A DNA stretch of 64,000 bases from Escherichia phage PA36. The position numbers are program-made. Below, in pieces: positions 51,001 through 60,000 of the stretch (position 1 is the first letter of the stretch; each line of letters begins with the position of its first letter). Where the stretch lies: the sequence record KP682386.1; one strand, written 5' to 3'.

Positions 51001-54000
51001 TTCAAAAGGCCAGGGGGGAACAGGCCAGAGATGAAAGTGCTTCATCTGCATCTCAGTTTATCCGTGGACTGAAACAGAATTACGCCCAGTAATTCACGAT
51101 ATTCCATTAATACCATTTCCTGATGCCCGGCCATTGTGCCGGGTTTTTTTATGGAGTCTGTATGGCCTATTCAGAGGAACAGCGTCCTGAGGCGCAACTC
51201 GGTAACCAGAATCGTAACAGCCTGAACATTCAGCAACCCGGCGAAACTGACAGCTATGAAGCATTTTTCTCTGATCCGAATCGCTGGAAGGATAACAGTA
51301 CGTCGTTCAGCCTGGGCGATGTATTGCCAACAATGGGTAAAGGTTTCGCCCAGTCCGTCCGGGGAACAGGGGAAATGGCCCGTGGACTCGGTGATGCGAT
51401 GATTCAGAGCCCGGTAAAAACAGGGGCGCGTATTTTAAATGAGTTCAGCCGTATGGGGCTGCCGGGTGTCGCAACTGTGCAGGATATTTTTGCCGGTGGC
51501 AGCAGGGGGGCTGATGAGGTCATCGATACCCTGCCTGATGGCAAAAACGCGGTTACTGATACTGTCGGTAAAGGTCTGAAGGCAACCGGTAAGGCTGTCA
51601 GTGATGGTGCCAAAGCCACTGATGAATGGCTGACCGGTAAGATGTCGCCGGGTGCAGTTCGTGCGCTGAATACGCCGATGACCGAAGGCTATAATGATTC
51701 TGCGGTCTGGGTGGCGAAGGGTGTAAACCTGATTGGTGCGCTTGTACCTGATATGGTTGCTGGCGGTGTGGCTAGAAAGGTGGGTGATGTCACACTGCGA
51801 AAAATGCTGACCGCCGGGCTGGAGAAAAAATACATCGCGGCAGGGATGCAGCCGGAAAGAGCCACGGCACTGGCAGCAGAAGCTGTCGATAAAAAAATGC
51901 CGGATTTATTCCAGGCGGGCCTGATCACCCATTCCACTGTAAGTGCACAGGGGCAGAGTGCAATGGCGGCAGCAGATGCTGTTCTTAATGCTGATTACTC
52001 TGAGCTGGCGCAGTCACCGAAATTTCAGCAGACGTTTTTGTCCATTGACGCCGACCCGCAGCACGCACAGCTTACTGATCGCCAGAAAATGGATCTGGCA
52101 AAAGAGCGTGTTGCCGATGAGGTGCGCGCGCAGCTGGCAACCGATCCTGAATTGCTGGCTGTGAATGCCATGGCGGCAAAACTGGGTGACGCACAACTGT
52201 TTAATCTGGTGACACGAGGCACAGCGAAGACCGTTAAAAGCGGCATTGTCAGAAATGCCACGGAACAGGGGGCGATTAATGCGGCGCAGGGCGGCTATTC
52301 ACGCTATCAGGAAAACACGGCATTGCGTGAGACCGCCGGAATGGGTGTGTCACCGTGGGAGGGCGTGGCTGACGCAACGATCGAAGGTGCAGCCTTTGGT
52401 GCTGCGATGGGGGCTCCATTCGGTGCGGTTGCCGGATATCGTGGCAGACGTCAGGCCGCAGAAGAAACCGCCATGCGTGATGCTGAAACCGTGCAGCAGG
52501 ACGACGCAGCCCCGCAACCAGAATCTGTTGATCCGGTGGCGCAGCAGCGTGAATCCATGCAGGGCATGAATCGCGAGCAGCTTCTGGAGCAGTATGCTGA
52601 TGCGGATATGGCAACAGAGGGTGACGCATCCGCAGCTCATCGCCGGGAAGCTGCCAGCCAGTTGTTGAATGAACTGGACGAACAGACGAAGCGACAGGCT
52701 GTGATGAATGAGCTGAAGGCGAAGCCGCGTTCTGAACTGCTTGAGGAATACCGCAGACTCAGCCAGAAAGAGGGGCGCACCGAGACTGAAGAACAACAGT
52801 TTCAGGCAATACGAGAAGTCATTCGCCCACAACAGGAAGTGACGCCGGAAGCACAGTCACAGCCTGAAAATGCGGAGGATGGTAACGGGAGCATTTACCC
52901 GACGGTGCGGTTCCGGGACCCGAATGAAGTCCGCATTGAAATTAACGGGAATGGTGCGTCCAGACCAGCGGAACGCATTGAGAAGGTGCGCCCGGACAAC
53001 CGTTATTTCACGGATGAGAAAAGCGCCATGGGGAGTGATGTTTTCCGTAATGCCGCCGCCACCGGCCTGAAACCGTCCGTAGTGAAGAAAGGCGAGAATC
53101 AGTATGCCGTTGAAATGGATAATCCTGCGTTCTCTGAAGATGTGGCAACGGAAACCATTAACACCCTGGCTGACGGAGAGCGTATTGCTGATGCTGACCC
53201 GATGGAGCAGCCCGCGTTCATGCGTGACCCGCGATTCCGTGGTTTCACGGGGGATGATACGGAGGTACAGGCCCGCCTTGCCCGTGGCAACGCGCCGACG
53301 GCAGAGGAGCTTGTACGTTCACAGATGGCTGAAGGTGATGCCGGTCCGACAGCACAGGAGTTAACTGAGCGTCCACGCCTGCCCGCTCCCGGCGATATTC
53401 ATCCCGGACAGGGATATCCGTTACCGGGAGAAGTGGCGCGTACGCCGGATGAAAATCAGGCCGGACGTGGTGGTCGTTTTACCACAACCGGTGAGGTTAA
53501 GGGCCAGAGTTTCCAGAAAGGACAAGCTCCGGCACCGGAAAACGCCGCTGGTCGCCAGGGGGAAACACTCGAGGGTGACATGGTTCGTCGTGGTCTGCCG
53601 TCACCGGATGCGCAGAACGCGACAGCACCGGTACGTGAAGGGCTACCGGCTCCTGACATTGCGCGTAATGTTCGTATGCCTCAGCCTGAATCACTTCCCC
53701 GCACTGTACGGGACTCACTGCCTGAGCTTGCACAGCAGGCAGAAGTACGCCGACAGGCCGGAGGAAATCGTGACATCCCGCAGCCTGAGACAATCGCACC
53801 TGAATCTGAAACAACTGTCTCTACTGACAGGGAAGCTACCGTGCGCGGAGGTGAAGTCAGGGGCAAAAAAATTGAAGACTTTGGTGAAGAAATTAAGGGC
53901 GCGGCAAAACACCGTTATGCACAGCTTGCTGAAACACTGGGTAAAACGCTGGAAGACAGGGATTATGCCACGCAGCCGCTGAGCAAACTGTTCCCGAAAC

Positions 54001-57000: not shown

Positions 57001-60000
57001 AGCGCTACGTTCAGCCACTGGCTAAATTACTGGCGGACTACAAAATTGCGCAGGCCGATCTGGATGAGTACCTCTACGCCCGTCACGCGCCGGAACGTAA
57101 CGCGCATATCGCGAAAATCAACCCGAAAATGCCGGACGGCGGTTCGGGGATGACCAACGCGGAAGCGGCGGAAATCATGCAGCGTGTACGTAACAGTGGC
57201 AAACAGGCACAGTATGACCGTCTGGCAGGGATTATTGACGATATGCTGGCCCGTCGCCGTGAGCTTATCCGTGAGGCCGGACTTGAAGAGAACGGTGTGG
57301 TGGATGCCTGGCAGAACGCCTACCGTTACTACGTTCCCCTGAAAGGTCAGGATGTTGACGGTGTGGTGTCACTGCCCCGTACAGGTAAGGGCTTCACCAT
57401 CGGCGGACGTGAAAGCAGGCAGGCCATGGGGCGTGCATCCCGGGCACAGTCTCCGTCCACTCAGGCGATACAGGACCTGAGCGAATCGCTGATCCGCCAT
57501 CGCAAAAACGAAGTGGGTAACGCCTTCCTGAAACTGGTGCAGGATAATCCCGACAAGGATTACTGGCAGGTATTCACCGATGACAGACCGGATACCATGC
57601 GGACGATTGCAGAGCGCAAGGACCAGGAAACTGGTGAAACCATTCGCGAAGTTGTCGAACGCCCTGTACCGATGGCAATGATGGCAGACCGGTACTTCAC
57701 CACCAAAAAGAACGGCAAAACGTACTACATCAAACTCCATGATCCGCGCCTGATGCGTGCGATGAAGAGTATGGGACCGGAAACCAGCAATGCCTTTGTT
57801 CGTACGCTGGGGAAAGTTAACCGCTTCCTGGCAACGGTGAACACGTCGTATAACCCGGAATTCCTGGTCAGTAACTTCATCCGTGACGTGCAGACGGCGG
57901 TGATGAACCTGAAGGCGGAGCAGGGAAGGAGCGACGGTAAACTGAAAGGGCTGGATAACTTATCCGCCCTGGCTGTGGTGAAAGACAGCCGTTCTGCCAT
58001 GTCAGCCGTATACGCCAGTCTGCGTGGTAAAACCCTCACGGGAAAAGGTGCACAGTGGCAGAAGGTGTGGAAAGAGTTTGTTGAGGACGGAGGGAAAACC
58101 GGCTGGTTTAACATGGGTGACCTTGAAGGCCAGCAGAAGGAAATGGATCGCCTTGTCTCACTGGCGAAGGGGGGATGGAAAGGCCAGAGTATCGGTGCAT
58201 GGAATTCGTTCCTTAACCTTGTCGAGGATGCCAACGGTGCGGTTGAAAACGCTCTGCGTCTTTCTGCCTATAAGCACGCCCGTGATGCCGGTTTGTCACG
58301 CCAGCAGGCGGCGTCTCTTGCCAAAAACATGACGGTGAACTTTAACCGTCGTGGTGAGCAGGGGGCGCTGATGAATTCGCTGTACATGTTCGCCAACGCC
58401 AGCATTCAGGGAACGGCAAATCTGGTGAGAACGCTCGGACATCTTAATGGTGAGGGACCTTTACTGGAGCGCCTTCGCTGGAAGAATCTGAATGTTCCGC
58501 AGAAAATCGCGCTTGCCGCTGTGGGAGCAGGTTATCTGCTTGGCTCGCTTAACCGCAGCGTGGCGGGTGAGGATGATGACGGGGTTAACTGGTATGACAA
58601 GGTGCCGTCTCATGTGAAAGAGCGTAACCTCGTCATTATGAAATCGGTGTTCGGGGGCAAGGCCGGAGAGTACTGGAGTATTCCTCTGCCTTACGGGTAC
58701 AACGTTTTCTTCCTGCTCGGGCATACTGCTGAAGGTGTGGCGGCGGGTGACCTGACGGCGTCCCGTGCTGCCGGTAATGTTGTTGGTGGTGTGCTTGGTG
58801 CATTCAGCCCGATTGGCAGTGAGACGTCGGAAACACTGTCCGGGGCATTGCTGAAAAATGCAGCGCCGACCATTCTGCGTCCGTTTGCGAACCTTGCCAT
58901 GAATGAAAACTTCATGGGGGCGCAGATTTACCAGGAGAACATGCCGTTTGGTACACCAAAACCTGACAGCCAGCTGGGAAGACGTTCAACGCCAGAAGCG
59001 TACAAGGCGTTTGCATCCTGGCTGAATGCGTTCTCAGGTGGCAGCCAGTACCGTCCCGGCGCGGTGGATATCACACCGGAATCGCTGAAATTCTGGATTG
59101 ACTATATCTCCGGAGGGACAGGGCGCTTCATTTCCAAAACCACGGATGCGGCGGTGAAATCGCTGAATGGTATTGATATACCGGAACAGCAGGTGCCCTT
59201 CCTGGGGAAAATTTCGGGGGAGGTGATGCCGTATGCAGACCAGCAGAAGATGTACGACCGGATGACAGAGATTGCGCAGTATCACGCAGAGCTGAAGAGT
59301 CTGACCGGTGCAGAAAGAACGGCGTTCATTGACGAGAACAACGGAAAATTGTCGATGAACGGGCTTATGCAGGATACCCGGAAGAGACTGAAGGATTTGC
59401 GTAAACAGCGTGATGCCATTTACGCCGACAGTACTCTCAGTCTGGCGCAACAGTCGGCGATGGTGAAATCGGTAGAGCGGGATATGAAAATTGCCGTGGA
59501 TCGGTTTAACCGCGAGTACAACAAAAAAGTGGGAGTGGATTAACAGAAATGGCCCCGTACGGAAGTGCGGGGCTGATTAAGAAATAAACACTCATTGACC
59601 TGTAATAACCGGAGCTATTAACATATAGTCAGAAGAGCATTTCATGTGATACAGAGAGCCGATTTATGTTTAATGAAGAAAAAGTTGCGCAAATGGCAGC
59701 GTATTTGCTGAAAAAGCATGGCGGATCTATGCGTTTCATTAAGCTGAAGCAGCAACGGTAATGGCGAATAGCATTTATGAGCAAAATAATCTTGATATGT
59801 TATTAGGCGATCTGATGTAACCGGGATGATGTTCACCCCTTATCGCCGGGGAACAATACCGGCAATCAGAATTGCGGATGGAACTATTCAGGCCCACGAT
59901 GATATCGATGAGGAGTTTTTTCAGCCAGTATTGGATGGCTTTCTTATATCCAAATATACGCCATTTGACATCCTCCACGCCCTGAAGGACGGGGTTTTAC

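Follow-up and report, generated by a model that had tools for sequence, protein, structure and literature searches.

A giant cysteine-free polyvalent protein at the end of the late operon of the Stx2 phage PA36: domain order and probable role as an internal virion protein

The polyvalent-protein class and its LPD domain families were defined by Iyer, Burroughs, Anand, de Souza and Aravind (2017; PMC5512222), and the CLCA_X zincin family, which occurs in phages and plasmids and often within very long proteins, was described by Lenart, Pawlowski et al. (2013; PMC3650047). Among Shiga toxin (Stx) phages, ORF80 (ECs1242) of Sp5 has been studied genetically: its deletion yields neither plaques nor lysogens, a defect that can be complemented, and the mutant retains a normal amount of DNase-protected DNA and normal-looking, DNA-filled heads (Mondal, 2016; PMC5155283). 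Particles of this mutant lose binding of the antibody against the tail fibre (ORF67), and ORF80 was named a tail-formation gene, the sole remark on its domains being a COG1483 AAA+ match; MG1655, which Table 2 of that study includes among its strains, may have been the indicator strain. In a 2026 preprint on phage phi24B (10.64898/2026.04.10.717836), the orthologue gp47 proved abundant when purified virions were analysed by mass spectrometry and was absent from the cryo-electron microscopy (cryo-EM) map; LPD5, LPD1 and LPD38 were listed, and an encapsidated ejection protein was proposed. The present study characterised the corresponding giant gene in Escherichia phage PA36, within a 64,000-nucleotide stretch of sequence record KP682386.1 (hereafter the window). 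The gene, its polyvalent class and its location in virions are already published, and the classification is left unchanged here. We consider that its product is probably a giant internal virion protein of the Sepvirinae (933W/Sp5/phi24B-type) Stx podophages, polyvalent in organisation, which is carried inside the capsid and leaves through the short tail when the phage infects.

A scan of open reading frames (ORFs) in the window returned the giant gene as a single unbroken frame on the plus strand, with a maximal form at 51123-59543 (2806 aa). Starting from ATG 51162, which is preceded by GGAG at 51153-51156, the gene spans 51162-59543 and encodes 2793 aa, as an earlier note on this DNA had described for an uninterrupted 8.4-kb ORF, and the same length is given for ORF80/ECs1242 (2,793 aa; Mondal, 2016). 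RefSeq places the start at ATG 51123 (2806 aa, product name 'LPD5 domain-containing protein'), and the phi24B orthologue is annotated with 2807 aa and described in the preprint text with 2811 aa, elsewhere '>3,000'. ATG 51123 has no Shine-Dalgarno sequence and lies just upstream of a terminator hairpin; because the ORF opened there reads through the hairpin and lacks a ribosome-binding site, ATG 51162 is likely the more plausible start, as judged from the sequence. Over its 8382 nt, the gene is 100% identical at the nucleotide level to copies in VT2-Sakai/Sp5, the PA series, a Stx1-converting phage and others. Full-length matches with at least 90% identity number 185 phage records. The protein shares 97% amino-acid identity with phi24B gp47 (vb_24B_48). 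By this identity the gene is recognised as Sp5 ORF80/ECs1242, known as L0134 in 933W and as vb_24B_48/gp47 in phi24B, and it holds the same slot as the last late gene in these phages.

The earlier note had placed the protein in the class of large polyvalent proteins that are packaged and injected to counter host defences. The class was confirmed by four Pfam domains, all above their gathering scores (LPD5, LPD1, MuF_C and LPD38), and packaging is supported by phi24B gp47, 97% identical, which is abundant in virions by mass spectrometry and without density in the cryo-EM map. The part concerning host defences found no support, since plaques and lysogens depend on the gene in the laboratory assay and its product carries no methylase or helicase domain. 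This dependence, together with mutant heads that are filled with DNA but do not bind the tail-fibre antibody, suggests a role in infection itself and not an accessory one against defences.

The domain order runs from an N-terminal conserved region through a disordered linker, an LPD5-metallopeptidase (LPD5-MPTase) cassette, an HExxxH-type MPTase and a MuF_C/PBECR RNase-like domain to a helical C-terminal module. The note had left the domains unassigned, although the field had already assigned them (LPD families, CLCA_X). The features of the protein are as follows:

aa ~161-408 (51642-52385, plus strand), N-terminal conserved region, by tblastn; PHROG 37568 matches aa 170-439
aa ~440-900 (52479-53861, plus strand), low-complexity linker, acidic and Gln/Ala/Pro-rich, by composition; no Pfam match
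aa ~900-1200 (53859-54761, plus strand), LPD5 region of the LPD5-MPTase cassette, by Pfam; 55 divergent homologues align over aa ~900-1047
aa 1051-1200, LPD5 (Pfam E = 6.5e-45)
aa 1182-1440 (54705-55481, plus strand), metallopeptidase domain 1, predicted CLCA_X-type zincin, its C-terminal part being Pfam LPD1
aa 1284-1288 (55011-55025, plus strand), HEWFH motif of domain 1, followed by D1291
aa 1361-1440, LPD1 (Pfam E = 1e-23)
aa ~1470-1680 (55569-56201, plus strand), metallopeptidase-like domain 2 of the HExxxH clade
aa 1551-1556 (55812-55829, plus strand), HEIIHH, with HEIIH at aa 1551-1555 (55812-55826)
aa 1750-1839 (56409-56678, plus strand), MuF_C (Pfam E = 1.3e-17)
aa ~1885-2793 (56814-59540, plus strand), C-terminal module of ~910 aa, mainly alpha-helical
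aa 2476-2681 (58587-59204, plus strand), LPD38 (Pfam E = 7.6e-48), inside the C-terminal module

Both HExxH motifs reported in the note, HEWFH at 55011-55025 and HEIIH at 55812-55826, are present; they are the only ones in the protein, against ~0.036 expected by chance at its own composition, and both are kept in homologues. Neither is covered by any Pfam match, even at E<=10. The evidence set out below supports the placement of both motifs in metallopeptidase-like domains.

The first motif lies in the LPD5-MPTase cassette (aa ~900-1440), which also occurs as stand-alone proteins of 450-900 aa in many genomes and metagenomes. The NCBIfam model CLCA_X (NF041907) matches aa 1182-1437 with E = 2.1e-43, from model position 3 to 245 of 250; because the match spans nearly the whole model, the first HExxH and LPD1 are read from the sequence as two parts of one domain. 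At 148.6 bits the match falls short of the curated whole-protein cut-off of 260 bits, and by sequence the domain is homologous to CLCA_X at the domain level and not a canonical member of the family. It matches 243 of the 250 model positions and has the HExxH-plus-Asp active-site consensus, but differs from a typical CLCA_X protein of ~260 aa in being embedded in a giant, with the Asp three residues past the second His (HEWFHSLD). In an alignment of 76 sequences from LPD5 to LPD1, H1263 (AHYE), H1284, E1285, W1286, H1288, D1291, E1375, R1379 and E1382 are invariant, and the conserved HExxH is accompanied by candidate downstream acidic ligands in D1291, E1375 and E1382. A phage-type MPTase variant in which strand 2 ends in a His and an Asp stands three residues past HExxH was described by Iyer et al. 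(2017), and the sequence of domain 1 matches that clade. The predicted model of the domain shows a zincin fold, so the lack of a metallopeptidase fold, which the earlier note had named as a refuting outcome, does not apply to the first motif. The closest folds are those of protein endopeptidases, namely MtfA, Pro-Pro endopeptidases, lethal factor and thermolysin-type enzymes, with PepO, neprilysin, thermolysin, elastase and botulinum light chains also named. Zinc-dependent peptidase activity is a prediction for this domain.

Homologues of the segment around the second motif (aa 1450-1745) amounted to 406 cluster representatives at E<=1e-3 in an exhaustive search. Nearly all are embedded in proteins 1000-6000 aa long, the few stand-alone ones having 210-270 aa. 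Conservation across 146 sequences is high at H1551 (99%), E1552 (100%), H1555 (100%), Y1596 (93%), E1607 (100%) and E1614 (91%). The family consensus is LRHExxxH(H/Y)GL...AEExxAxxAE, that is, HExxxH, and the segment matches in sequence the 'HEXXXH' MPTase clade described by Iyer et al. (2017); the Stx-phage clade differs from that type by the deletion of one residue, which turns the motif into HEIIHH and gives it HExxH spacing. Pfam holds no model for the segment or for its stand-alone members (Peptidase_M76 reached only E = 0.2), and the profile of domain 2 found no relevant match among Protein Data Bank (PDB) sequences. Aligned by hhalign with the trimmed profile of domain 1, it gave a weak match (P = 3.6e-4, probability 37%) in which the preceding strand and the HExxH helix lined up. 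Domain 2 is a putative zincin, judged from its conserved motif and this profile match.

The MuF_C domain that follows is a phage BECR-fold RNase-like domain and not a metallopeptidase, and host RNAs are the proposed targets of the PBECR domain (Iyer et al., 2017). The phi24B preprint speaks of 'a MuF-C metallopeptidase domain' (10.64898/2026.04.10.717836), a label that appears mistaken because MuF_C belongs to the BECR fold. In the giant protein the domain carries H1752 (NGVKH) and S1816 (ASVYG), putatively at BECR catalytic positions, their conservation having been judged by eye on few sequences. Two stand-alone proteins, P0123 (Pectobacterium sp., 489 aa) and P0225 (454 aa), consist solely of an HExxxH peptidase-like domain followed by MuF_C. 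Because these proteins carry just those two domains, they suggest that the HExxxH domain and MuF_C form a functional pair able to exist outside the giants.

The C-terminal module was modelled from the final 944 aa using a 47-sequence alignment, and from aa ~1885 the model forms one coherent helical fold (pLDDT 84.4, pTM 0.81). A Foldseek search of BFVD returned 70 viral matches, the whole fold being recovered with TM 0.6-0.86 at 13-39% identity; these matches are C-terminal chunks of phage giants bearing lysozyme (LT_GEWL), RelA/SpoT, methylase or other LPD domains. By tblastn and homologue lists, the module is present in Stx phages, in about 100 Vibrio phages (41% identity) and in Bcep22 gp75 and Ralstonia GP4-type giants annotated 'DarB-like' (27%), and metagenomic proteins with the same module carry variable upstream domains (ART, methyltransferase, InPase, GGDEF, LPD3). 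Because fold and sequence matches keep the C-terminus and differ upstream, the C-terminal module is the constant part of these phage giants and the middle enzymatic domains are the variable part. No structural match was found between the module and solved PDB chains, the known T7 core proteins included. The hydrophobic Gly-rich segments noted earlier near the C-terminus are indeed Gly/Ala-rich, at aa 2449-2467 (just upstream of the LPD38 match) and 2515-2549 (inside it), but only moderately hydrophobic, with Kyte-Doolittle means of 1.0-1.2 over 19 residues; in the model they are helices within the folded domain. Classical transmembrane helices were absent, no 19-residue window of the protein exceeding a Kyte-Doolittle mean of 1.4. 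A 28%-identical match over 89% of the module also occurs in the archaeal Methanosarcina virus MetMV (MK170447.1, 40102-42492), an unexpectedly broad range of hosts for a module presumed to handle the Gram-negative envelope.

The Bcep22, GP4 and Vibrio giants share with the PA36 protein this C-terminal module of ~800-900 aa, at 27-41% identity over 82-96%, and together with JC1 they likewise end the virion module of ~60-kb podophages. They differ from it in length (3100-4600 aa) and in their other upstream domains, and the N-terminal region is common only to the Vibrio giants: aa ~161-408 recur at the N-terminus of ~3100-aa giants in about 100 Vibrio phages by tblastn. JC1 gp69 (4515 aa), annotated as a Bcep22 gp75 homologue and likened to these proteins by annotation only, is virion-associated by mass spectrometry, and the portal and tail of phi24B resemble those of GP4 (10.64898/2026.04.10.717836). 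Compared with the polyvalent proteins surveyed by Iyer et al. (2017), the giant is alike in combining LPD5, LPD1, LPD38, MuF_C/PBECR and two variant MPTase types among virion genes; unlike many of them, it has no recognisable methylase, SWI2/SNF2 or ART domain and is genetically essential.

The giant protein contains no cysteine in 2793 aa (P ~4e-14 at 1.1% Cys). The same is true of 101 of the 113 homologous giants of 1500-6026 aa and of 51 of the 58 homologues of the C-terminal module. Among proteins known to be ejected, cysteine is absent from N4 virion RNA polymerase (vRNAP; 0/3500), T7 gp15 (0/747) and T7 gp16 (0/1318), while the portal, capsid, tail and terminase proteins of T7 have 0.5-1.0% Cys and the other Sp5 late proteins 0-1.7%. 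This absence would reflect selection on chains that cross the tail channel and the oxidising periplasm unfolded, and complete lack of cysteine may mark tail-ejected phage proteins in general. Cysteine-free ejection proteins were not found as a theme in Iyer et al. (2017) or among the ten papers listed out of 112 literature matches, and the term 'ejection proteins' occurs in none of those ten.

N4 gp50 and T7 gp15/gp16 are functional analogues of the giant, being large, packed in podophage heads, ejected and Cys-free, and N4 gp50 also has an HExxH motif (HELVH at aa 2228). N4 gp50 differs in its four vRNAP Pfam domains, none of which occurs in the giant, where PHROG 2206 (vRNAP) gave a marginal E = 0.0063. 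An N4-like virion RNA polymerase was considered and set aside, no T7-like RNA polymerase module having been found by Pfam. Kinship of the C-terminal module with the N4 vRNAP encapsidation region was likewise rejected: the module profile showed no similarity to the C-terminal 1400 aa of N4 gp50 (hhalign probability 0.2%), in a comparison of limited sensitivity with a single sequence on one side.

In the explanation we favour, the giant protein would be packed inside the capsid and ejected via the short tail during infection. The C-terminal module, as the constant part, would provide, probably together with the N-terminal module, incorporation into the head, exit through the portal and tail channel, and extension of a conduit across the envelope. 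The chain would travel unfolded, which would account for its lack of cysteine, as in T7 gp15/gp16 and N4 vRNAP. The two zincin-like domains may then cut the polypeptide itself or other proteins and free pieces such as the RNase-like domain in the cell, where that domain would act. Several points weigh against this explanation. Ejection into the cell is inferred, and presence in virions comes from one preprint on a 97%-identical orthologue. The loss of tail-fibre antibody binding in the Sp5 mutant was read by its authors as a tail-assembly defect, although an internal core protein needed for stable tail attachment could reconcile this observation. Peptidase activity and processing are predictions from sequence, the link of domain 2 to zincins consists of motif conservation and a weak profile match (probability 37%), and the conduit role is conjectural for a module that has no solved relative, T7 core proteins included, in a protein with no segment hydrophobic enough for a classical transmembrane helix. 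Some virion proteins that are not ejected are also free of cysteine, for example three Sp5 late proteins. A further-reaching version, which we offer tentatively and with more doubt than conviction, is that the giant polyvalent protein of T=9 Stx/Bcep22/GP4-type podophages is the DNA-delivery device itself and not optional anti-defence cargo, its conduit formed or driven by the Cys-free ~900-aa C-terminal fold (with the N-terminal module) and its interchangeable middle cargo freed by the zincin-like peptidases after transit.

The same genetic data could be read as those of a tail-assembly factor or tail component, possibly energy-using, that acts in morphogenesis and not in infection: ORF80 mutant heads are normal and filled with DNA, yet do not bind the anti-ORF67 antibody, and the 2016 authors noted the COG1483 AAA+ match. 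The ATPase part of this proposal was rejected, since the Walker A pattern [AG]xxxxGK[ST] occurs nowhere in the protein and no ATPase family matched in Pfam or NCBIfam. The phi24B tail and portal were, moreover, fully modelled without the virion-abundant giant protein, and its domains come from families that characterise packaged polyvalent proteins; the loss of tails could also be secondary, and the two readings are not mutually exclusive. We give a purely morphogenetic role a small share of the probability. An accessory anti-defence carrier like P1 DarB, protecting incoming DNA from restriction or CRISPR and dispensable in undefended hosts, would agree with the inclusion of DarB in the polyvalent class, with the match of PHROG 10089 'DarB-like antirestriction' to aa 2351-2681, with the C-terminal module common to Bcep22 and GP4 proteins annotated 'DarB-like', and with the proposal that the PBECR domain targets host RNAs. 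However, neither plaques nor lysogens form without the gene in the Sp5 laboratory assay, searches with Pfam and NCBIfam and a motif scan revealed no recognised anti-restriction domain, methyltransferase and helicase included, and no Walker A/DEAD motif, and the part held in common is the C-terminal carrier module, not the enzymatic domains of DarB. As a candidate identity, a P1 DarB-like protein was discarded, methyltransferase and helicase being absent and the PHROG 10089 match falling in the C-terminal module. PADLOC models gave no match, which says little about an anti-defence role, as they represent defence-system proteins. Such a role as the main function is unlikely.

The phi24B preprint proposed that the metallopeptidase digests peptidoglycan so that the ejection conduit reaches the inner membrane, and precedents exist in that podophage ejection proteins often bear a hydrolase of the cell wall (the annotation of T7 gp16 includes an endolysin domain) and that relatives with the same C-terminal fold include carriers of LT_GEWL lysozyme. 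The preprint locates the peptidase activity in MuF-C, an RNase-like domain, and no lysozyme, transglycosylase or M23/LAS family match was found in the giant protein by Pfam. Because the folds nearest to the HExxH domain are those of protein endopeptidases and not of cell-wall peptidases, a peptidoglycan-peptidase role is poorly supported, and we regard it as very improbable. Packaging in the capsid followed by ejection through the tail remains our preferred account of the giant protein.

The N-terminal third of the protein was only partly as the earlier note had described it. Proline enrichment to 11-12% was found by composition only at aa ~700-900, inside the low-complexity linker. The degenerate repeats were not recovered: self-BLASTP of aa 431-1045 found no internal match at E<=10, and Tandem Repeats Finder reported only a trivial 25-nt array. 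Hydropathy marked Gly/Ala-rich, moderately hydrophobic stretches at aa 181-199, inside the N-terminal conserved region, and at 407-425, next to it. Pfam searches of the uncovered segments at E<=10 returned noise only (EF-hand_6, DEK_C, Peptidase_M76 with E = 0.2, Gly-zipper, WXG100), and the whole protein had no relevant match among PDB sequences (best E = 0.8).

As proposed in the note, the gene lies at the end of the virion module: it is the final gene of the plus-strand late/virion block of the Stx2 prophage, in which terminase, portal, capsid and tail-fibre genes precede it, and lies ~31 kb downstream of Q. The relevant features outside the giant gene are:

19676-20149, same strand as the late operon, Q antiterminator, 100% identical to phi24B Q
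20933-21892, Stx2A
22660-24564, NanS-p esterase
48841-50150, insertion sequence of the IS3 family, 1310 bp, with target duplication TAT at 48838-48840 and 50151-50153
51125-51151, plus strand, intrinsic-terminator-like hairpin (GCCCGGC-loop-GCCGGGT) with a seven-T run, by pattern scan, sequence and RNA fold

A terminator just upstream of the gene had also been noted, and it is found there as a hairpin at 51125-51144 (stem of 7 bp with 6 G-C pairs) followed by seven T at 51145-51151, downstream of the 3' part of ORF79 and ahead of the giant ORF; RNA folding of 51115-51165 gave -15.4 kcal/mol (z = -1.95). The regulated read-through that this terminator had suggested found no support, with no sign of gene-specific control in a Q-antiterminated operon that has other strong plus-strand terminator-like hairpins at 46236-46254 and 47095-47114 by pattern scan. 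Reading of Q-modified polymerase through terminators is an established lambdoid mechanism. The phi24B annotation carries comparable late-operon terminators. The terminator upstream of the giant gene is real but ordinary, and Q-modified RNA polymerase would simply pass it, as with the other terminators of the operon. The hairpin at 46236-46254 comes directly after a lom-like gene (45478-46212), a position consistent with insulation of a lysogen-expressed moron.

In the giant gene itself nothing differs from VT2-Sakai; next door, ORF79/ECs1241 is split here by the 1310-bp IS3-family element, an insertion that VT2-Sakai lacks. The homologue of ORF79 starts at 48514 and resumes at 50151-51092, and the '310-aa ORF' directly upstream of the giant gene is only its 3' fragment. 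The element is IS629-like in its size, its two ORFs (108 and 296 aa) and its terminal repeats (TGAACCGCCCCGG...). Among related records, phage PA27 has 64021 bp, exactly 1313 bp more than the PA records of 62708 bp. ORF79 counts among the tail-formation genes found to be essential (Mondal, 2016; PMC5155283), and because the insertion disrupts it, this prophage copy can probably not give rise to infectious particles.

The additions made here to the published picture are modest and comprise the assignment of the two motifs to MPTase clades (one with structural support), the relabelling of MuF-C, the ~900-aa C-terminal fold, the Cys-free signature and the insertion sequence in the neighbouring essential gene. 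They offer H1284/E1285, H1551/E1552, E1607, H1752/S1816 and the C-terminal module as targets for mutagenesis. Should the protein prove to be the delivery device itself, complete absence of cysteine would become a usable sequence signature of tail-ejected proteins. Shiga toxin genes are spread by short-tailed Stx phages, for whose ejection machinery the giant protein, with an essential gene that occupies 13% of the genome, is the foremost candidate.

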